DNA of 32,000 nt from Geomonas oryzisoli (GTDB lineage: Bacteria > Desulfobacterota > Desulfuromonadia > Geobacterales > Geobacteraceae), in the NCBI RefSeq assembly GCF_018986915.1, contig NZ_CP076723.1, forward strand, positions 3,964,228 through 3,996,227, read 5' to 3'. The position numbers and the translations under genes were made by a program. Of this stretch, positions 1,278 to 13,393 are shown piece after piece (the first letter of the stretch is position 1; the number at the start of each line of letters is the position of its first letter). Below the pieces are notes generated by a model. The model made no database searches, was not told the origin of the DNA, and saw only the letters and a list, made by a program, of their open reading frames with translations.

Positions 1278-1376
1278 TGGTCCCATCCATCTACCCAAAC
1301 AGGTTAGGTTCTCTTGCTGTCCCAATATCAATGCAGGTCACCGATCTTTAGCTGCACAGGTTTCTGCGCTTCCGTT

Positions 1377-1457
1377 CCCTCCCCCGGAGGGGGAGGGTTA
1401 GGGAGGGGGATCGCCGGAAGATTCCCCCCCTCCCGACCTCCCCCCTCCGGGGGGAGG
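1377..1457. repeat. C/G-tract hairpin repeat cluster (REP-like) between the giant gene and the OmpA gene
   Basis: Perfect palindrome CCCTCCCCCGGAGGGGGAGGG at 1377-1397, followed by TTAGGGAGGGGGA. A second hairpin CCTCCCCCC-TCC-GGGGGGAGG lies at 1437-1457. Both sit in the 207-nt gap between stop 1485 and start 1277. Confidence 0.6.
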
Positions 1458-1484
1458 AGCCCGCGCTTCTTACCGTCTGCTGCA

Positions 1485-4400
1485 TCACGGCGGCGCCCCC
1501 CGGCGCCAGAACACCTCGGTCTCGATGGTGAGCGGGTAGCCGTCCCCCCACTTGCCGGAGATCTCCGCCTTGAGCGCCTTGAGGCGCCGCTCCACCAGGG
1601 CCTTGCTCTCCACCTCGGCGAGGTAGGAAAGCCTGAGCACCGCCGGGGCCTTGCGCAACTCCTTCAAAAGGAGGTCGATCCGCGGCTGCCACTGCCTGCG
1701 CAGCCTGGTTCCGTTGGGTTCGAAGGCGCCGTCGGCGACGTCCAGGGAGACCACGTGGTGGATGGCGGCGCCGAAGTTGAAGCGCAGCATCTTGCCCCGT
1801 GTCGCCCGCTGCACCTGGGGGTTCTCGCCGGTGACGCGGTACCCGGTAGGGAGGGTGCGCTCGTCGAGCTTGAGGATGAAGTTGCTGCCCCGGTCCTGGT
1901 CCGGGACCATCGCGCAGGTGATGTGGAAGCGGCCGAACTCGTCGGTGGTGGCGACGAGCCCCCGGGCGGTCACGGCGCGCACACCGGCGAGCCCCTTTTC
2001 TCCCTGGTCCGGGTAGCCGTTGGTGTTGACGTCGTCAAACACCTTGCCGATCACGTCGGTGCAGTCGAGGTCCGCATCGGGGATGACGCGGACGGTCGCC
2101 GAGGCGACCCCGGAGGCGACGCTGTCGGTGATGTTGCTCAGCACCTGGGCGCGGTTCACGTACTCCCCTTCGGAGACGCCGGAGCCGACGATCATGAGGA
2201 AGGTGATGCTGTGGCTGGTGCTGCTGGTGAGCTGCGAGATGTTCCAGGTCATCTGGCGCGTGTTCTGCGTCGGCTCCGCCTTGCGGCCGTCCAGGCGCGC
2301 CGACCCCGCCACGTACTTGAATCCCGCCGGGAAAGTGTCCACCACGCTCAGGTCCCTGAGGGTCGCCCCCAGGGTGTTGTTGAGGGTGATGGTGTAGGGG
2401 ACCAGGGTGCCGCGCGACACGTCGGTCACGGCCGCGGTCTTGGTGATGGCGATCGCCGTGTTGAGCGTGGGATCGACGGCGATGTGGTTGTTGTAGATCT
2501 GGCTGTAGCCGGGCTGCAGGTTGTCCAGGGTAAGCCGCAGGTAATAGGCGGTAGCGGCGCCGGGGAGGACGGAGGTGCCGGGCGCCAGGTCGGAGGCCTG
2601 CGCCTCGCAGTACCCGGCCGTGGTCGGCACCGCGTCGAAGGCGCCGCCGGGGCAGGAGGGTACCGCGAAGGAGGCGGTGCTGTCGCTGGAGGCCGGGGGC
2701 ACCAGTTTCGAGACGCCCGCCGTGTACCCGGATGCCGGCGGCGTCACCTGGATCAGGTAATCCCCGCCGGAGGGGCAGGAAGGATCGCTGAAGTTGAGGT
2801 CGAACTTGTAGAGGCCGCTGGCCGTGGTGACCTGCCCCTGCTGCACCGGGTCATTGAAGCAGCTCGCGGCGAGAGCTGTCCTGCTTGCCGCCTGGACCAT
2901 GGTCAGCGTCGCGCCCGGCACCGGGGTGCGGACGATGGAGTTGTAGACCACGCCGTTGGGGGTGAGCGGCAGGTTCAGCCCCTGCAGCAGCGTCCCCCCT
3001 CCGGCCACGATGTCGGAGATGCGCTGCATGCCGTTGGTGAAGGGAGAGCTGCACCATCCCAAGAGGGCGGTGGCGGCGCCGGCGCCCGGCGCGCGGAAGC
3101 GGAGTTCATACCTGATCGCGGTGCCGGCGTTGGGGGTCACCCCGCTGAAGCGGTAGGAGCCGTCGGCGGAGCTGTTCACCGTCCCCACCGCGCGGCCGTC
3201 CTGGTACAGCTCCACCGCCCACCCCGCCGACGGGATCTCGCCGCCGTCAAGGACGTTGTCGTGGTTCGCGTCCTGCCACACCGAGCCGGCGAGGCTCGCA
3301 CTCCCCGGCATGCCGCCCACGGTGACCGCGGTCCCGGCGCTCGCCACCCGGGTGGGGGTGTCCCAGCTCGCCTGGGCGGTGTTGTTGACCACGCTGCCGC
3401 TGGACACGGTGGCGTTCAGCTTCACCTGGAAGCGCAGCGCGACGGAAGCACCCGGCGCCAGGGCGCCGTGGCTCGCGCCGTAGTTGGCAGTCAGGACCGG
3501 CGCCGCGTAACTGACCCCGCTGGAGGAGCCGTTCATGACAGCGGAGCCGGAGAGGTAGCTCCCCTGGGGCAGCAGCGGGGTCAGGTCGTCGGTCAGCACC
3601 ACGCCCGTAGCCGGGACCTGCCCTATGTTGGTGGCGCGCACCGTGTATTCCAGGATGCTCCCCGGCAGCGCGGCACCGCCGCCGACCACCACGGCGGACT
3701 TGGTGATGCTGAGCTGCTGGGCGTTCCCCACCGCGATCACCGTGGGCTGGTAGCCGTTGGCGGGGGTGCCGTCGGAGTCGGTGGCAAGCAGCGGCAGTTC
3801 CGCGCTGGCGACGCTCCCCTGGTTGCTGATCACGGTACCCGCAGCGACTCCCTGGTTGACCTGGACCTTGAAGGTTACGACACCGGTGCCGCCTGCCGCG
3901 AGTGTCCCGGCGGTCGCGGGGGGCGCGGGCGGGGTGACTCCCGGGGAGACGACACCGATGCCGTTGGTGAGGGGGGAAACTCCGGCCGCCGCGTCGGCTA
4001 CCGCCGCACCGTTCAGGCGTACGCTGTTCGGGACGTAGGTGGTGTTGGCGGGGATGGCGTCGGTGAACAGCACGCCGGTCGCGGGTGGCGCCCCCGAGTT
4101 GGTCATGGTGATGGTGTACTGGAGCTCGTCGCCGGGATCGACCAGGCCGTCGCCGTTGGCGTCGGCGACGAGCTGGACCGTCTTCAGCGCGTAGAGAAGC
4201 GGCAGGTTGCCGACGATCACGGTGGTCGGATCGTTGGGCACCGGCGTCGCCGGGTTGTCGGAAGCCTCTTCCGGGAACGGGCCGCTTGCCGCACCGGTCC
4301 CGGCCAGGAAGGCCTGATTGGAGATGAGGGTCCCGGCCACGACGCTCCTGCTGATCCTGACCTCGAAGGTGACGGTGGCCACGTTGCTCGCGGTACCGGC

Positions 4401-7400
4401 GGCCGCGGGCATGGTGCCCGGCACCGGGTTCGCGGGCGAGTTGACCGTCATACCCCCCTGCAGCGGGCTCGCAGCGCCGACGTCCGCCACCGGCTTGCCG
4501 TTCAGGGTGGTGCTGTTGGGGACATAGGCGGTGTTCGCGGGGACCTGGTCGCGCAGCGTGACCCCGGTCGCGTTCTCGGTGCCGTCGTTCTTGACGGTGA
4601 TGGTGTAGCGCAGCGTATCGCCCGCCTTGACCGTGGCGCTCCCGGAGGTAACGTCCCTGACCGTCTTCTGGAGCAGGAACCGCGGAGCCGACGCGATGAC
4701 GGTCCGGGTCGGGTCGGCCGTCCCCGGCAGCGAGGGGTCGTCGCTCAACTGCGACGGCAGCAGGGGGGACGCGACCTGCGCCTGGTTCTGCACCAGCGAA
4801 CCGCTGTCGAGCACCGGCGCCAGGGTGTCCTGGAACTCGACCAGCAGCACGTCACCCGCCTGCCCCTGCGGGGCCACGGTCAGGTTGCCGACGCTCACCA
4901 CCCCGGTCCCCTTGCCACCGCCGTTGACCGAGGTGGCGGCGACGTTCGCGCCGGCCGGGACGCTCAACAGCTTCAGCGTTCCGGGTGCGAACATGGCGGT
5001 CGCGTTCAGCTTGTCGAGTTCGTCGGTCAGGGTGAAGTTCGCCGCGCCCAGGGCGCCCACGTTGCGGATGGTGAGGGTGTACTTGAGGGTGTCGCCGGGC
5101 CTCGCGTTGGCACCGGACTGCCCGGTCGTTGCGTTCTGCACGGTCTTGGTGAAGCTCAAAAGCGGCGCCTGGGTGGTCACGGTGAAGGCGTCCTGGCTGT
5201 CGAGTACCCCGGGGGTGCCGTTGGTCAGCGCGGCGGTCGTGGCCTGTATATCCCCTGTAGCGGTGACCGCAGGGTCGGCGCTCAGCCACCTGGTGGCGCC
5301 CGCCACGTTGGTGAGGGTGATCCCCCCCGCCGTGTAGGGGTCGAGCGAGGCGCTGTACGTCACCAGCAGTCGCTCTCCCGGCGCGATGGCCGCCGCGGAC
5401 GACTTCATGGCGACGGTCATGGTGCAGGCGGGCGCGGGGGCGAAGCCCACGGTGAAGTCGGTGCCGTTCACGAGGTTCGCCGAGACGGGGGTGACCCCGT
5501 CGGCCTGGTAGACGCGCGCCGTGACGCCGGTCGGCGCCGAGCCGCACATGCTCCCCGGGGCGGGGGTGGTCACGCTGGGGAGGAGGTCGGTGAGGGTGGC
5601 CTGCCACGCGGTGCTGCCGCCGGTATTCTGGACGTTGAGCGTGAACAGGCCCGGGGCGAGCGCGTTGATGGTGGCCGGTCCGCTCTTTTGCACGGTCAGC
5701 GCGGGGCCGACGATGATGATCGCGGCGCTGGCGCCCGGCGCGCCGTTGGCCTGGGTGGCGGGGGTGCTGTTGACGCCGTTGTAGGTGTAGGTCGCCGTGT
5801 TCTGGAACTGCTTGCCGAGCGTGTTGGCGGCGGAATTGGTGAGCAGCACGGTGACGTTGATCACGGCCTGCTGGCCGGCCGGTATGTCGATGCCGCTGCC
5901 GCTGTCCTGGATCACGAGGCTCGTGGCGCTGCCGCTGTTGACCGGGGTGAAGGCAGGGCCGGAAACCCGCTGGACGCTCACGAAGCGCAGGTCCACCCCG
6001 GTCGCCGCGGCGCTCAAGTCGTCCAGGATGCGCACGTCGTACATGGCGGTGGGCTGAGGCACCGCGGGAACGGTGATGGTGTAGCCGAAGGGGCGGCCGA
6101 TGGCGGCGCTGGTCACCTGGGCCTGCTTCGAGAGCGCCGTGGCCGCCGCGGTGGTGAGCTGCACGGTGGCCGCGCTGGTCGGGCCGTAGAGCTGGCGGTT
6201 GGCGGGTACGCTCGCCGCCGGGATGTCCTGGCTGTCGAAGGAGTAGTAGCCGGTCACCTGCGCCTGGTTGTTCAGGGTCACCCCGGCGCCCAGCCCCGCG
6301 TCCCCCTTCACCTGGTAGGTCACCTGCAGGGTCTGCCCCGGGGGGACCGCGTAGAGCCCCGCCGAACCGGCCGCGTCGAAATTCCAGGTGGCGATACCGC
6401 TGGCCGCGCTGTAGCTCGGGGCGAGCGTGGGCAGGGTGGCGCTGGTCGTGCCGGTGGCGCTGTCCACGAGCGTGACGCCGGTGGTGGTGACGCCCCCCTG
6501 GCGCAGGCCGACCGGCAGGGTGTCGGCGAGGACCGGGTCGTAGGCCGGGGCGGTACCGCTGTTGGCCATCCTGACGGTGTAGGTGATCGCCTCGCCGGCG
6601 CTGATCACCGTGCCGCCGCCTGCCGTGGCCGCGCTCTTGGTGACGTTCAACAGCGGTTGCCAGACGTTCAAGGTGGCGCCGGAGTTCTTCGGGGTCGCGG
6701 CCACGCCGTTGATGGCGTAGTTGAGCGTGGCGCTGTTGACGAGCTGCTGCGCCGTCGGGGACTGCGCCAGCGCGTTCTTGACCACGTGGGCGCGGTACTG
6801 GATGGTGAGCGTGTTGTTCGCCGCGTTGTTGTCGGCCGTGTTGACGACGTTGCCCAGGTTCCAGGTCAGGGTGCCGGTGGCGCCGGGCGCTGGCTGGGAG
6901 GAGACCGTGTAGCTGAAATTGCCGCTCCCCGAGGCGGGGGCGATGCTCACCAGGGCGTCGTAGGCGAGGCCGGCCGGGAGCTGGTCGGTGAGCACCACGT
7001 TCTGCGTGGTCCCTTCCCGCAGGGTGAGGGCAAGGTTGTAGACCACGGTATCGCCCACCCGCACGGTCGCGTCGGTCGCACTCCCCGGTGCGGCGCTCCA
7101 GGAATCGGAGACCACGGTTTTGGCGAGGGCGGTCGGGTCCAGCGAGGAGACGGTGGCGGAGACCGGGCCGGAACAGTAGTTGTTGGGAAGGGTGGTGGCG
7201 GGGCAGCCGGCGCCTGTGCGTTCGCCGGGGACCGAGCCGGAGAGCGAGGTCCAGTCGACGTAGACGTCGTTGGTGATGGGGGCGCCGCTGGTCTCCAGCA
7301 CGGTCACCAGGTAGCTCAGCACCAGGGTCCCGCCGGCCGGGATGTCCAGGCTCGCGTCGCCGTTTTGGCTCCCCCAGTCCACGGCGCCGCTGGGAAGAGC

Positions 7401-10115
7401 GGCGGGCGTGGGCATGAAGCCGGTCACCGGCGCGCCGTTGATCTGCGCGGTGGCCGAGCCCGGTACCAGCGAGACGTTGGCGGGAAGGAAGTCCATGACG
7501 TCGGCATCGTAGGCCCGGGAGCCGCCGTCGTTGGTGACGGTGACGGTGTAGCGCAGGACGTCTGCGGGGGCCGCGGCGGCGGACGCGGCTTTCCCTGCCG
7601 GGGAGGCGTAGCCGACCGCCTTGGCCGCGGTGAGGTGCGGTTCGACCACCGTCATGTTGGCCGTGGTCGCCGCGCCGCCGGCCGACTGGGTCAGGCTGTC
7701 GCCGTTTAGCTTGTTGTAGGTGTAGGAAGCGGTGTTGCTGAAGCTGAGTCCAGCGCGGTTCGCACTGCTGTTCTGCAGTGCCGCCGTCACCTGGATAACC
7801 GCCTGCCCCCCCGCCGGTATGTCGATGCCGGTGGCGAGGTCCTGGAGGATGACGTTGGTCGCCGTGCCGGTGTTGGTGAGGTTCCAGTTGCCGCCGGAGA
7901 TGACGTCGGCACCGACGAAGCTCATGCCTGCCGCCGAGAGCCCCAGGTTGTCCAGTATCCTCACGTCGTAGAGCGGGACGTCCGCCGGGGTGGCGGGTAC
8001 CTTGATCAGGTAGCTGAACTGCTGACCGACGGTCGCCGTGGTCGAGGCAGGGTTCGCCTTGGAGAGTGCCCCCGGCGCCTGGATGGTGACCCTGGTGGGG
8101 TCTCCGCCGGAGCCGAGCAGCACGGTCCCATTGCTATAGGGATCGTCGCTCGGGCCGGCCCAGACCGTGACGGGGTTGGTGCTGGTGTCGGTCCCGGTGA
8201 CGCCGGCCTGGTTGGAGACGACGGTGCCGTTGGTGAGGGTCGCGTCGAGGGTCGCGTCGAACTCGACCTGGATCTGCGCAGTGGTGGTGGCGCCACCGGG
8301 GAGGGTGAGGCCGGAAACGGTGACGGACCCCGGGGTGCCGCCGCCGGGCTGGGTGACGCTCACCGTGCCGCCCGCCGGGGTGACGGTGACGTTGGAGACG
8401 GAGCGCAGCCCGGCCGGGAGGGTATCGGTGATGGTGACCCCGTTCAAGGGGGGCCAGGTGAAGTTCTGCAAAAGCAGGGTGTAGTGCAGCCGGTCTCCCG
8501 GAAAGGCCGCCGTGGCCGGATTGGCTCCGGTGGTCAGGTCGCGCACCGTCTTCTGGAAGTAGTAGCCTGCCAGCGCGGCGGTCACCGTGTAGGCATCCTG
8601 GAAGTCGAGGGTGCCGGGGGTGCCGTCGGTTATGGTCCGGTCGTACTCGCGGCGCCCGGGATAGCCGCTGTTGGCGCTGAACCACCTGGTGGCGCCGGCG
8701 ATGTTGGTGAGCGTCGCCCCCGAGGCGACCCCGGTGCTGTCGACCTGCGCCCGGTAGGTGACGATGAGGCGCTGGGTGGGGGCGATCTTGGCGGAATCGA
8801 GCAGGGTCAGGGTGAGCTGCCCGGGGGAACCGGGGCCGCCGCTCCAGGTGGTGGTGAAGTCGGTGCCGCTCACCAGCGGGGCCGACACCGGGGTCACCCC
8901 GTCGGAGGCGAAGACCTGGGCGCTGATGGTCCCGACCGGGGAGACGGTGCTCATGCCGGCCGGGATGTGGTCGGTGATGGTGGCGTTCCACGCTTCGCTT
9001 CCGCCGGTGTTCTGGACGTTGAGCGTGTACCTCACCTGTGAATCCATGTTGACCGTCGCAGCCGAACCGCTCTTGGTAAGGGTGAGGTTCGGCTCGACCA
9101 CCGTCATGGGCGGGGTGGTACCGGGCCATGCCTGCAGGTCCACCATGCTGGTGCTGTTGATCGGTTTGTTGAACCACATGTTGGCGGTGTTGGAGAACTG
9201 CGACCCCGCCTGGTTCACGCCGGCCGGGTTGCTGTCGAGGACGACGGTGACCTGGATCTCCAGGTTGTACCCTGCCGGGAGCGAGGCCAGCGCCGGGTTG
9301 TATTCGTAGGAGAAGACCAGGTGCCTGGTGGCGTCCGAGAGGACGCCGGGATGGCTGCTGAGCCAGCCGCCGCTCGCCCCGAGGGTGAGCGGCGCCCCTC
9401 CGTTGAGCGGCGCCCTCGCGCCGGTAGCGGGGTTCACGAGGTAGGCGGCGTTGGTCACGTAGCTCAGGGCGGCGCCCGTGGCGGTCAAGTCGTCGGGGAT
9501 GACCACGTTGGTCACCGTGGCGTCGTCGCTGTTGGCGATGTACTGGAACGTCCCCGTCGCGTCGAGTTTCCCCAAAAGCGGCACACTGATCGTATAGGTG
9601 AAGGGGACACCGACGGCGGCGGTGCTTTGCGCCGGGGGATTCTTCTTGCTCACCGCGTCGACCGGCACCATGAAGGCCTGGCAGGCCGGGCTGATGTTGT
9701 TGTACCCGCCCGGAGCCCAGTAGATCCAGAAATCGGACTGCGTCGGGTCGTTGCACGACATGTTGCCGTAATAAAAGACGTTCAGGAACGCGATGTAGTA
9801 GGATTGCTGCTGCGGGAAGTTGAAGTTTATGTTGGTGATCGGGAAGCCGCCGATGGAATCGGGGAAGTTCTTGATGGTGCAGTTGGTGTCGATCCCGAAG
9901 GTGGACGCCCCCCTGACCGCGGCGAGGGTGGCGGGGTTGTTGCCGTCGACCACGCCGCCGAACTGGGAGCAGAAGATCCCCGCTGCCCGGGCAGACGTGC
10001 CCCATCCGACCAGCATGACCAAAAGGGCGGCGGTCGCAGCCAGGCGCGCCACGGACCTGGCGGCGCCCATCCTGGCGGCGGCCATCGATAACATCAGCTT
10101 TGTCTGTGTCAGCAT
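1485..10115 (-). CDS. Giant secreted repeat protein (roughly 2,880 aa): N-terminal signal peptide, Cys-containing head domain, three isopeptide-D2-like modules, about eleven DUF11 (TIGR01451-type 'conserved repeat') domains, and two SdrD-B/Cna-B-like domains; putative adhesin or surface-layer component
   Basis: ORF 1485..10181 (2898 aa). The likely start is ATG 10115 ([46 protein letters not shown]); alternatives are 10094, 10085 and 10070. Recurrent DUF11 signatures are present (LTKSG...[81 protein letters not shown]). Cna-B-like segments are [16 protein letters not shown]...DGSYRFSGV and [23 protein letters not shown]...DEFGRFHI. There is no LPXTG motif, T1SS-type RTX repeat or autotransporter beta-domain. 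Confidence 0.9.
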   Translation of the reverse strand: [2876 protein letters not shown]

Positions 10116-10186
10116 TCTCACTTCTGCCCTCGATGAAGATCGCTCAACTACTGTTGCGGCCCTTGGCAGGCCGACCTGCACGCACC

Positions 10187-10308: not shown

Positions 10309-10482
10309 TCACTTCATTCTTTCGTTCCTGATCGCGTCGCAAACGCGGTAGTCGGCGATGTTCACCGTGACCTGCAGGTGCGGCGCGGAAAGAAGCCCGA
10401 TCTCCTTCATGCACTCGGTCAGCTTTCGTTTCCACTCCGGGTCAAGGGTTCGTTTGGTCAATTTTTCCATTGCATGCCTCAT
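10309..10482 (-). CDS. Hypothetical 57-aa protein, the first ORF downstream of the tandem riboswitches
   Basis: Not in the ORF track (below 60 aa). It runs from ATG 10482 (in-frame ATG 10470) to TGA 10311-10309. The RBS-like AGGAAAG sits 5 nt upstream. The translation is MRHAMEKLTKRTLDPEWKRKLTECMKEIGLLSAPHLQVTVNIADYRVCDAIRNERMK. No family was recognised. Confidence 0.45.
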   Translation of the reverse strand: MRHAMEKLTKRTLDPEWKRKLTECMKEIGLLSAPHLQVTVNIADYRVCDAIRNERMK

Positions 10483-10499: not shown

Positions 10500-10539
10500 A
10501 AAAAAAGAGCGCTCCCATCTACCGAAGATGAGAGCGCTC
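10500..10539 (-). terminator. Intrinsic terminator of riboswitch unit A (promoter-distal unit)
   Basis: The minus-strand RNA is GAGCGCUCUCAUCU-ucggu-AGAUGGGAGCGCUC followed by UUUUUUU. One position is a G-U wobble on the minus strand but a C-A mismatch on the plus strand, which fixes the functional strand. Confidence 0.8.
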
Positions 10540-10575
10540 CTAGATCGGGGGGGGTGCCGGATGCCAAGATGCTGA

Positions 10576-10661
10576 CTCATCTCTTCGGCAACCCGGCTAT
10601 CCTTCACAGGACCCGTGGCTTTGCGTCACCAGATCACTCTGGTTTTGCCCGTTCGGAGAAC
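10576..10661 (-). promoter_or_regulatory. GEMM-I (c-di-GMP-I family, Rfam RF01051-type) riboswitch aptamer, unit A
   Basis: The minus strand reads GUUCUCCGAACGGGCAAAACCAGA-GUGA-UCUGGUGACGCAAAGCCACGGGUCCU-GUGA-AGGAUAGCCGGGUUGCCGAAGAGAUGAG. It has the conserved GCAAA(A)CC box, a GNRA-capped P1 hairpin, the GACGCAAAGCC core, a P2 hairpin and the GGUUGCCGA 3' strand. Confidence 0.85.
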
Positions 10662-10702: not shown

Positions 10703-10741
10703 AAAAAAAGGCGCTCCCATCTGCCAAAGATGAGAGCGCCT
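10703..10741 (-). terminator. Intrinsic terminator of riboswitch unit B (promoter-proximal unit)
   Basis: The minus-strand RNA is AGGCGCUCUCAUCU-uuggc-AGAUGGGAGCGCCU followed by UUUUUUU. It carries the same minus-strand-only G-U wobble as unit A. Confidence 0.8.
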
Positions 10742-10774
10742 CTTGATCGGTAATAGCGGATGCCAAGATGGGAA

Positions 10775-10862
10775 CTCATCTCTTCGGCAACTCGGCTATC
10801 CTCATTCAAGGACCCGTGGCTTTGCGTCACCAGATCACTCTGGGTTTGCCCGTTCGGAGAAC
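10775..10862 (-). promoter_or_regulatory. GEMM-I (c-di-GMP-I family) riboswitch aptamer, unit B
   Basis: The minus strand reads GUUCUCCGAACGGGCAAACCCAGA-GUGA-UCUGGUGACGCAAAGCCACGGGUCCU-UGAAUG-AGGAUAGCCGAGUUGCCGAAGAGAUGAG. It has the same architecture as unit A, about 200 nt upstream of it. Confidence 0.85.
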
Positions 10863-10891
10863 TTTTTTAACAATTTGTAATCGACGGCCAC

Positions 10892-10920
10892 CTTTTAGCA
10901 GATGGCTTAACGCTTTGCAA
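10892..10920 (-). promoter_or_regulatory. Candidate sigma70 promoter for the tandem-riboswitch transcript
   Basis: The minus strand has TTGCAA (10920-10915), a 17-nt spacer and TAAAAG (10897-10892). It is preceded by A-tracts with repeated ATTGT (UP-element-like). The predicted start lies about 20 nt upstream of aptamer B, the same geometry as the 11676-11704 promoter. Confidence 0.4.
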
Positions 10921-11023
10921 CAATTTTTTTTCACAATCGCGGCAATTTTTTACAATCGCCGCGGCCACCGGCCGGAAAGCTTCTTTGGCCGCCGGGGCCG
11001 GGGAGGGAAAACCCGGCATGGTT

Positions 11024-11437: not shown

Positions 11438-11541
11438 AAGCCCTCCCACGGCATCATGCCAAGCACCCGAACGTTCACACTGGATATTTTGTCGTATCGA
11501 AACCGGCCCATGCCATGCTGGTCTCCCTGCGCCTGAACGCG

Positions 11542-11649
11542 AAAAAGCCGGGGCTTCGATATCAGGAGTGATATTTCGGCGACCCGGCTGTCTCGGTGAG
11601 ACCCTTTAGGCTTTCCGTCCCATCCTCGCGGATGGTTTAGTATTTTCGT
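11542..11649 (-). promoter_or_regulatory. Variant GEMM-I-like cyclic-dinucleotide aptamer (about 11573-11649) plus a putative terminator-type expression platform (11542-11589), in the hemerythrin leader
   Basis: The minus strand reads ACGAAAAUACUAAACCAUCC-GCGA-GGAUGGGACGGAAAGCCUAAAGGGUCUC-ACC-GAGACAGCCGGGUCGCCGAAAU. It has the GEMM-I layout (AAACC box, GNRA hairpin, GAC-G-AAAGCC core, second hairpin, AGCCGGGU.GCCGA). The canonical GC...GC closing pairs are replaced by the covarying CU...GG. The aptamer strand AGCCGGG (11589-11583) can instead pair with CCCGGCU (11552-11546), which is followed by UUUU. Confidence 0.55.
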
Positions 11650-11675
11650 GTATCGGTTCTTGTTATTGCGGACGC

Positions 11676-11704
11676 AACATAGCGCAGCAAGGCAAGCGTG
11701 TCAA
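11676..11704 (-). promoter_or_regulatory. Near-consensus sigma70 promoter for the hemerythrin leader
   Basis: The minus strand has TTGACA (11704-11699), a 17-nt spacer and TATGTT (11681-11676). This places the start about 20 nt upstream of the variant aptamer. Confidence 0.6.
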
Positions 11705-11821: not shown

Positions 11822-12103
11822 CTACTTGCCCCCCCCGAGAGCGCTCTTCACCTTCTTCAGCGTGTCGATGTTCTTCTGAAGGCCGCTCACGTTCTTCTCC
11901 ATTTCGGTGATGGTGGTGCCGAGCTGGGCCACGCTGCCGATGATGCCTCCGCTGCCGGCCGCCCTCTGCAGCAGTTCGTTGCCCAACTCTCCCATCTGGG
12001 CGTTGGCACGCTGCTCGCTGATCGAGCCGCAGAGGTATCCCGCCACAAAGACCACGGCAAAGGCCGCGACCCGCAAACTGTAGACGACGCTTTTCTGTTT
12101 CAT
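11822..12103 (-). CDS. Hypothetical small exported or membrane-anchored protein, 93 aa
   Basis: ATG 12103 has GGGAGG 7 nt upstream; the track start at 12142 lacks an RBS. There is an N-terminal hydrophobic segment (MKQKSVVYSLRVAAFAVVFVAGYLCGS) followed by a helical region. It lies 54 nt downstream of the 12158-12445 gene, so the two are likely co-transcribed. Confidence 0.65.
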   Translation of the reverse strand: MKQKSVVYSLRVAAFAVVFVAGYLCGSISEQRANAQMGELGNELLQRAAGSGGIIGSVAQLGTTITEMEKNVSGLQKNIDTLKKVKSALGGGK

Positions 12104-12157
12104 GTCAGTTCCTCCCATGACCCGATGCCTTATCACCGCCACGCCCGGTTGCTCACC

Positions 12158-12445
12158 CTACTTTTTCTTTTCCTTCTTCTCCGGCTTGGCGGCAGCCTCC
12201 TTGGCCTCGATACTGGCGGCTTTCATGGTGTACATGATGGTGACCTTGCTGCCGACCTTGATGTCGCCGGTGACCTTGGTGTCCTTGTCCTTGGCGATCT
12301 GCCACTTCTCGCTCCCCTTCTGAACTACGATCATGTCGTCCTTCACTTCGAGTACCGGCCCGGTCACCTGATAGCTCTTGGGAGCGGCATAGACGGTCGT
12401 TGCGGCAAGCAGAGTGATCCCCGTTAAAGCTGCGACAAGTTTCAT
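12158..12445 (-). CDS. Hypothetical small secreted protein, 95 aa, with a Lys/Glu-rich tail
   Basis: The RBS AAGGAGGA lies upstream of ATG 12445. The signal peptide is MKLVAALTGITLLAATTVYA/AP. The core is beta-rich (KVGSKVTIMY) and the tail is EAKEAAAKPEKKEKKK. Confidence 0.7.
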   Translation of the reverse strand: MKLVAALTGITLLAATTVYAAPKSYQVTGPVLEVKDDMIVVQKGSEKWQIAKDKDTKVTGDIKVGSKVTIMYTMKAASIEAKEAAAKPEKKEKKK

Positions 12446-12568: not shown

Positions 12569-13393
12569 CTAGCAGGCAAAGGGTTTTTGCAGCATTATCG
12601 TCTGCACCGGCATCGGCGCCGGGAAGCCTGCGGCAGCGAGGCTCTCACGGATCACCTTGTTACCGTCGAAATAGACCTGCCAGTAGTGGTCATTGTGACA
12701 ATACGGCCGCACAGCGAGCACCGGGCCGAGCGCGGTGAATTCCAGGATATCCACCTGCACCTGGGGATCGGGCAGTACGTTGGGAACCTGGGCGAGCTTC
12801 TCCCGCAAGAGAAGCATGGCGGCAACGTGGTCGGCATCGCCGGAAAGCTGGCACTTCATTTCGACCCTCCTGAACGGGTTGGTCGAATAATTCTGGATGG
12901 TGTCGCTGAAGATCTTGTTGTTGCCGACCATGGTGAGGACGTTGTCCGCCGTGTTGATGGAGGTTATGAACAGCCCGATCTCCTTGATGGTCCCGGTCAC
13001 CCCTGCGGCTGTCACGAAGTCGCCGACCTTGAACGGGTGCAGCACGATCAGGAAGATGCCTGCGGCGAGGTTGGCGAGCAGGCCGCCCCAGGCGGCGCCA
13101 ATCGCGATGCCGACACCGGCGACCAAGGCTGCGAAGGTCGTGGTCTGAATGCCGCAGTAGCCGAGGATGGCGACCACCAGGACGATGTTGAGGGTGACGG
13201 ACACGAAGTTGCCGATGTAACGCATCAGGGTGGGATCGACCTTCTGCCTCTCCAGCACCCCCTGCAGCATGCGCCCGACCAGACCGATGAGCCAGCGTCC
13301 CACGAGCCAGAACAGGATCACTGCGACAAGTTTGGTGCCGTACTCGGTGGCATACGTCACTGCGAGTTGCTGATACTGCCCCACGTTGTCCAT
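12569..13393 (-). CDS. Small-conductance mechanosensitive channel (MscS family), 274 aa
   Basis: ATG 13393 is preceded by AAAGGAGGA. There are three N-terminal TM helices. The MscS pore and beta-domain signature is AGVGIAIGAAWGGLLANLAAGIFLIVLHPFKVGDFV...GTIKEIGLFITSINTADNVLTMVGNNKIF. Confidence 0.85.
   Translation of the reverse strand: MDNVGQYQQLAVTYATEYGTKLVAVILFWLVGRWLIGLVGRMLQGVLERQKVDPTLMRYIGNFVSVTLNIVLVVAILGYCGIQTTTFAALVAGVGIAIGAAWGGLLANLAAGIFLIVLHPFKVGDFVTAAGVTGTIKEIGLFITSINTADNVLTMVGNNKIFSDTIQNYSTNPFRRVEMKCQLSGDADHVAAMLLLREKLAQVPNVLPDPQVQVDILEFTALGPVLAVRPYCHNDHYWQVYFDGNKVIRESLAAAGFPAPMPVQTIMLQKPFAC

Follow-up and report, generated by a model that had tools for sequence, protein, structure and literature searches.

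A standard GEMM-Ib element, predicted to be a 3',3'-cGAMP riboswitch, in the leader of a Geomonas hemerythrin gene

Does the leader RNA of a hemerythrin gene in Geomonas oryzisoli carry an unusual GEMM-I aptamer, or an ordinary member of a known riboswitch class, and which cyclic dinucleotide would it read? The gene lies in a stretch of 32,000 nucleotides, the whole of which is here called the window. In the initial annotation, the leader had been described as a variant GEMM-I-like aptamer with an A at the ligand-selectivity position and a flipped, covarying base pair next to the pocket. The best explanation is now that the element is a GEMM-Ib ON riboswitch and a predicted 3',3'-cGAMP sensor of the hemerythrin gene, which is held to be very probable.

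The hemerythrin leader is a genuine structured RNA with the GEMM-I fold. What the analysis shows for it is its place in the family, the bases of its pocket, the pairing of its helices, a terminator fold that competes with the aptamer, and the conservation of the whole leader. In an Rfam cmscan of the whole window (4227 families, gathering threshold), the aptamer matches RF01051 (c-di-GMP-I) on the minus strand with 45.3 bits (gathering score 35, E = 6.1e-06). The match spans model positions 1-87 of 87, which confirms the GEMM-I layout that had first been drawn by eye. The score against RF03167 (c-di-GMP-I-GGC) is 47.9 bits and does not reach the gathering score of that family (59).

The Infernal alignment places A11641 at model column 11, which is the G before GCAAA in the consensus and corresponds to Vc2 G20. 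The A that had been proposed for this position is thus indeed there. At columns 12-13 and 36-37 (consensus GC/GC) the element has CU (11640-11639) and GG (11616-11615). The resulting pairs are C11640-G11615 and U11639-G11616, both without a non-canonical flag. The A47 equivalent (the A after GACGN) is retained at 11614, and the C92 equivalent (the first C of GCCGAA) at 11579, which is also the position of C75 in the pilM riboswitch. All helices are paired, and the two non-canonical flags are confined to the outer stem. The P1b hairpin is closed by a GCGA tetraloop, and the A20 and A47 equivalents are 27 nt apart, the same spacing as between A14 and A41 of Gs1761.

Table 1. Features of the hemerythrin locus in the window, and loci elsewhere that are used for comparison
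Feature	Coordinates	Strand	Basis
Sigma-70-type promoter: TTGACA (11704..11699), 17-nt spacer, TATGTT (11681..11676)	11704..11676	-	10/12 consensus positions
GEMM-Ib (cGAMP-type c-di-GMP-I family) aptamer	11651..11575	-	RF01051 match, pilM identity, Geobacterales copies
Intrinsic terminator overlapping the aptamer 3' strand	11589..11542	-	Minimum-free-energy fold, conservation
RBS GGGAGGG of the hemerythrin gene	11447..11441	-	
Hemerythrin-family gene, 137 aa	11437..11024	-	PF01814, E = 2.4e-09, 38.2 bits vs cut-off 25.3
Canonical c-di-GMP-I aptamer, tandem copy 1 (G20/A47/C92)	10860..10783	-	RF01051, 61.5 bits
Terminator of tandem copy 1	10744..10706	-	Terminator scan
Canonical c-di-GMP-I aptamer, tandem copy 2 (G20/A47/C92)	10658..10583	-	62.6 bits, RF03167 label
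Terminator of tandem copy 2	10541..10505	-	Terminator scan
57-aa ORF downstream of the tandem aptamers	10482..10309	-	No Pfam match
2,898-aa DUF11/SdrD_B/Cna-B repeat surface protein ORF	10181..1485	-	Pfam
Hemerythrin paralogue loci in other Geomonas stretches	L108 6338..6896; L062 3481..5497; L069 4978..6986; L003 5383..7272		
Genome loci bearing on position-20/helix combinations	L014, L033, L045, L068, L081, L117		

The combination of A20 with CU/GG turned out to be common. A scan of the genome collection with the pattern CTAAACC-N(8-20)-GGACGGAAAGCC returned at least 141 matches in at least 120 stretches, almost all of them from Geobacterales. Among the matches listed, the sources are Geomonas, Geotalea, Geobacter, Oryzomonas, Geomesophilobacter and many MAGs, often with tandem copies. 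The spacer is an identical 13 nt in 137 of the 141 matches listed, and the base 5' of CUAAACC is A in 129 of them (G in 10, C and T in 1 each). The flanks of the listed copies are near-identical to those of the window element (…ACGAnAAUA, directly followed by CUAAACCAUCCGCGAGGAUGGGACGGAAAGCCUACAGGGUCUC…GAGACAGCCGGGUCGCCGAAAUAUC). Among the A20+CU/GG aptamers listed, 117 of 126 are followed within 70 nt by a pyrimidine-rich complement of the 3' strand and then a T-run. This count comes from a relaxed terminator regex; a strict one (exact CCCGGC) undercounts, giving 81 of 128.

The same core has been published. The native pilM riboswitch of G. metallireducens is printed as …GACAAUACUAAACCAUCCGCGAGGGUGGGACGGAAAGCCUACAGGGUCUCUCUGAGACAGCCGGGAUGCCGAAAUAUCACAAUUCGUGAUGCUCGGUCCCGGCAUUUCUUUUU (Landgraf et al. 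2022 supplement, PMC9262584). It is identical to the window aptamer at 67 of 74 positions (90.5%), and the seven substitutions fall mostly at P1 and P3 loop positions. This riboswitch, which we take to be that of the Gmet_0970 locus, has in common with the window element the core of A followed by CUAAACC…GGACGGAAAGCC, the CU/GG pairs, the A47 and C92 equivalents, the P1b hairpin with its GCGA loop and a short P3. As A20+CU/GG occurs in at least 129 genome copies and in the published pilM sequence, the window element is ordinary and not an unusual variant, and the framing of the initial annotation has to be given up on this point. A20 with CU/GG appears to be what the consensus reads in the GEMM-Ib class already known from Geobacterales. 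The hemerythrin-leader element is a standard member of GEMM-Ib (Geobacterales subclass), an already-known class. Searching the full text of the literature for CUAAACC and ACGGAAAGCC gave nothing but unrelated primer matches.

The helix next to the pocket is real and covarying. In a mixed set of 56 family members, RNAalifold counts 44 CG and 12 GC at columns 12:37, and 43 UG and 13 CG at columns 13:36. No pair is broken in either case, which holds partly by construction, because the search patterns fixed both pocket-adjacent pairs for most rows. The 12 elements that entered without pattern selection (10 G+GC/GC, 1 G+CC/GG and 1 G+GU/GC) all keep the pairing. Double changes were found in 6 of the 8 recovered pairs, and in P1b 5 of the 6 pairs show double compensatory changes. 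P2 and P3 were not recovered by RNAalifold on this mixed set because MAFFT misaligned the variable P3 loop; these two helices rest on the Infernal alignment.

Two statements of the initial annotation about this helix hold in part. The first was that the pair change is compensatory: pairing is indeed preserved (C-G and U-G), but a true flip is seen in one pair only (G-C to C-G), the other being a one-sided change from C-G to U-G. The second was that two invariant boxes had changed together. Here, the CU/GG change is present, whereas the family shows variation in both GCAAACC and GACGCAAAGCC.

A metagenome scan for aptamers that combine A20 with an unswapped GC/GC pair (AGCAAACC…GACGCAAAGCC) found them in abundance, at no fewer than 120 loci (at least L121-L240), where position 19 is often G, U or A. 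For L156 (86.8 bits), L160 and L149 the columns were assigned by Infernal. The opposite combination, G20+CU/GG, is seen in Infernal alignments of L117, L033 and the second L045 copy, and as a match only in L014. The first L045 copy carries G20+CC/GG, with the pair fully Watson-Crick flipped (Infernal). Both G20 combinations occur in Desulfatirhabdium, Desulforhopalus, Syntrophaceae and UASB14 genomes; for G20+CU/GG these are non-Geobacter Desulfobacterota. The scans were pattern-selected, and their counts show that the combinations exist and do not give their frequencies. An obligatory linkage between A20 and the pair swap is ruled out by these off-diagonal combinations (A20+GC/GC, G20+CU/GG and G20+CC/GG). 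Across the sequences compared, the pair swap appears to be characteristic of lineages and to change independently of the base at position 20.

A more subtle role of the helix is improbable. The C-G/U•G helix below the selectivity adenine could be a second-shell determinant that gives the A20 aptamers of Geobacterales strong cGAMP selectivity, with A20+GC/GC aptamers staying bispecific. According to Keller et al. 2018, determinants beyond A20 are still unresolved. The engineered Vc2 G20A mutant, which is bispecific (PMC6140456), is itself an A20+GC/GC aptamer. Since all four combinations are found in nature, the second-shell idea can be tested with natural sequences.

Upstream of the aptamer, the promoter TTGACA-17-TATGTT is present as first proposed, and both of its hexamers are invariant in two Geomonas orthologues. 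A promoter scan of the region gave 3 promoter-like sites where 0.9 were expected from shuffles. Downstream, the expression platform is predicted to have a ligand-ON design in which a terminator competes with the aptamer 3' strand. This terminator is made up of the 5' arm AGCCGGG (11589..11583), an inner hairpin, the 3' arm CCCGGCU (11552..11546) and UUUU (11545..11542). The minimum-free-energy fold of the full leader (11660..11528; -44.6 kcal/mol, z = -2.9) contains the terminator pairing: P1b and the tip of P3 fold as hairpins, yet AGCCGGG pairs with CCCGGCU. The platform alone adopts the same terminator fold (-22.1 kcal/mol, z = -2.2). The simple terminator scanner omits the leader terminator because its loop exceeds 8 nt; the support for it comes from folding and homology. 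As the aptamer 3' strand is recruited into the terminator, the terminator and the ligand-binding fold would be mutually exclusive. The antitermination switch suggested at the outset, with AGCCGGG opposite CCCGGCU-UUUU, is in agreement with this fold and with the same design in pilM.

The following course of events is proposed. The TTGACA/TATGTT promoter would initiate the leader transcript. When the ligand is absent, AGCCGGG and the region beside C11579 would pair with CCCGGCU, and the resulting intrinsic terminator with its U-run would halt the RNA ahead of the hemerythrin gene. When the ligand is present, the cyclic dinucleotide would be held by A11641, the intercalating A11614 and C11579. 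In this case, A11641 would pair with the A of cGAMP and C11579 would form a Watson-Crick pair with the G, thereby locking the 3' strand in the aptamer helices. The terminator would then be blocked and the hemerythrin gene would be read (ligand-ON). That the ligand would be cGAMP rather than c-di-GMP, and that the switch would be turned ON by it, is suggested by homology to pilM/Gmet_0970 and Gs1761.

The leader has been preserved together with its gene. Synteny with the window is found in Geomonas propionica (L006; ~84% identity over ~8 kb) and in G. edaphica (L048), and in both genomes a hemerythrin orthologue (~74% amino-acid identity) lies behind the same aptamer. In the three-way alignment of the Geomonas leaders both promoter hexamers, the terminator arms and the U-run are invariant, and the aptamer essentially so, while the stretch from the terminator to the RBS has diverged or is partly deleted. 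The search of related genomes suggested with the initial annotation has in this way recovered both the CUAAACC core and, in two Geomonas species, orthologous leaders that conserve the aptamer. Within the terminator-to-RBS stretch, a small hairpin (GGCAUgaUGCC, 11460..11450, minus strand) is found just 5' of GGGAGGG; it is kept in L006 and L048 with changes in the loop and the closing pair.

In four other Geomonas loci (Table 1), paralogues that share 29-35% identity with the hemerythrin of the window are also located beside or between GEMM-Ib aptamers. In the literature searched, no mention of a recurring hemerythrin/GEMM-Ib association was found. Hemerythrin, likely an O2- or iron-binding protein, joins the genes under predicted GEMM-Ib control in Geomonas, and this arrangement recurs in several genomes.

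The neighboring unit belongs to the context of the hemerythrin switch and is not part of it. It contains two near-identical tandem aptamers, each with its own strong terminator of 16-17 bp and with Vc2-type pocket positions, that precede the gene of the giant surface protein. Infernal places a G at column 11 in both of them, as had been stated in the initial annotation. Geomonas propionica (L006) keeps the tandem c-di-GMP-I pair and the same arrangement. Tandem copy 2 received its RF03167 label by clan competition, despite an A at position 47 (GACGCA). Labels of RF03167 or RF03168 were likewise given to the canonical aptamers 2182..2258 and 1976..2051 of L006, and in all three cases the scores are barely over the gathering scores of those families. 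The labels RF01051, RF03167 and RF03168 are silent on the ligand class, and the A20 column must therefore be read from the alignment.

Upstream of tandem copy 1, a block at ~10929..10874 (minus strand) is ~100% conserved with G. propionica, whereas the rest of the spacer has diverged. The block has an A-tract followed by TTGCAA-17-TAAAAG, which is probably a separate promoter; as a conserved element it supports two adjacent transcription units. From the hemerythrin stop to this block the sequence holds no recognizable canonical terminator, and transcription of the hemerythrin unit may therefore continue into the tandem aptamers. Because the tandem neighbors carry G20, it is plausible, as was proposed initially, that the adjacent units read different cyclic dinucleotides. 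With its cGAMP-type switch immediately ahead of two c-di-GMP-type switches for a giant surface protein, this locus would be a compact natural example of two cyclic-dinucleotide signals acting next to each other.

Some further observations concern the surroundings. Two ORFs lie upstream of the riboswitch promoter on the minus strand, at 11822..12142 (106 aa) and 12158..12445 (95 aa). Neither has a Pfam match, and the 95-aa ORF shows a signal-peptide-like N-terminus and a Lys/Glu-rich tail. The next gene after them encodes an MscS-type channel (13393..12569, PF00924). Antisense to the giant surface-protein gene runs an ORF of 2,131 aa (1314..7709, plus strand) with an extreme Gly/Arg/Ala content; it almost certainly reflects the high GC content and does not represent a gene. 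No GGDEF domain, the domain of Hypr cGAMP synthases such as GacA, was matched among the window ORFs submitted to Pfam.

Among the other explanations, the one that survives best is still rather unlikely: the element could be a functional GEMM-I riboswitch that is bispecific in vivo, or mainly responsive to c-di-GMP, with hemerythrin and the downstream adhesin-like gene reading the same signal. A response to both ligands has been reported for the omcST riboswitch of G. sulfurreducens (PMC6456294). Bispecificity is known from some natural A20 riboswitches as well, and Gs1761 also binds c-di-GMP, in this case via a protonated adenine (PMC6140456). Since such bispecific A20 riboswitches exist, sequence alone is no proof of cGAMP selectivity. 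However, pilM, with which the aptamer shares 90.5% identity, is regarded as a sensor of c-GAMP, and in Gmet_0970 it takes the change from A to G at position 20 to turn the selectivity to c-di-GMP (PMC6456294). The locus also contains separate G20 aptamers for the neighbor unit, which would be redundant if both units read c-di-GMP.

It is highly unlikely that CU/GG is the signature of a new subclass whose ligand is neither cGAMP nor c-di-GMP. Rfam does hold pocket-altered variant subclasses in the same clan (RF03167 and RF03168), but the RF03167 score of the element stays below the gathering score, and all contact positions have the identities of the cGAMP class (A20, A47 and C92). The characterised pilM cGAMP riboswitch has CU/GG too, and other lineages combine this pair with G20, which is the behavior of a neutral covariation in the helix. 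A new specificity class is rejected on the pocket nucleotides and the identity to pilM. Hardly credible at all is a decayed, non-functional GEMM-I copy with a low score due to erosion: the 45.3 bits are indeed below the 61-63 bits of the neighboring canonical copies, but RF01051 scores of 41-46 bits were obtained for every Geobacterales GEMM-Ib copy tested, so the value is class-typical and no sign of decay, pairing is kept in all helices, and aptamer, promoter and terminator are nearly invariant in three Geomonas genomes with diverged flanks, by which this explanation is effectively refuted.

The GEMM-Ib ON riboswitch thus remains the preferred reading, and its closest characterised relative is the pilM riboswitch. 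This RNA is described as a c-GAMP binder that switches transcription ON; its terminator takes up the aptamer strand and with it C75, the cytosine that pairs with the ligand (PMC9262584). The platforms are alike, as in both an aptamer GCCGGG pairs with a downstream CCCGGC followed by a U-run. The two differ in the genes that follow and in their hosts: pilM regulates the pilus assembly genes pilMNOPQ in the genus Geobacter, whereas the window element precedes a hemerythrin gene in Geomonas. A cGAMP pathway has been described in Geobacteraceae, the family of genus-level relatives (PMC6456294).

Gs1761 (pgcA, GSUR3008) from G. sulfurreducens belongs to the same class as the window element and is turned ON by antitermination, as is predicted for the latter; mutations in its terminator lead to constitutive expression. 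A preference of at least 100-fold for cGAMP is reported for Gs1761. Its crystal structures are available (4YAZ, 4YB0). In cGAMP riboswitches an A takes the place of G20, and in Gs1761 this residue (A14) pairs with the adenine of cGAMP (PMC6140456). The residue-level comparison with characterised cGAMP riboswitches was made with pilM. [quoted passage not shown]

The canonical GEMM-I aptamer Vc2 from Vibrio cholerae (RF01051) has the fold, the three-helix architecture, A47 and C92 in common with the window element. It differs by G20, by its GC/GC pair and by a picomolar affinity for c-di-GMP. RF03167 (c-di-GMP-I-GGC) and RF03168 (c-di-GMP-I-UAU), presumably families defined by changed pocket nucleotides, have the same fold and compete with RF01051 for matches within clan CL00126. 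The consensus of RF03167 reads GACGCG, whereas the aligned aptamers have an A at the last position (GACGCA in the tandem copy, GACGGA in the CU/GG aptamers). The GEMM-Ib class was discovered in 2015 and has since been characterised by crystallography, genetics and kinetics; the element in the hemerythrin leader is one more copy of it.
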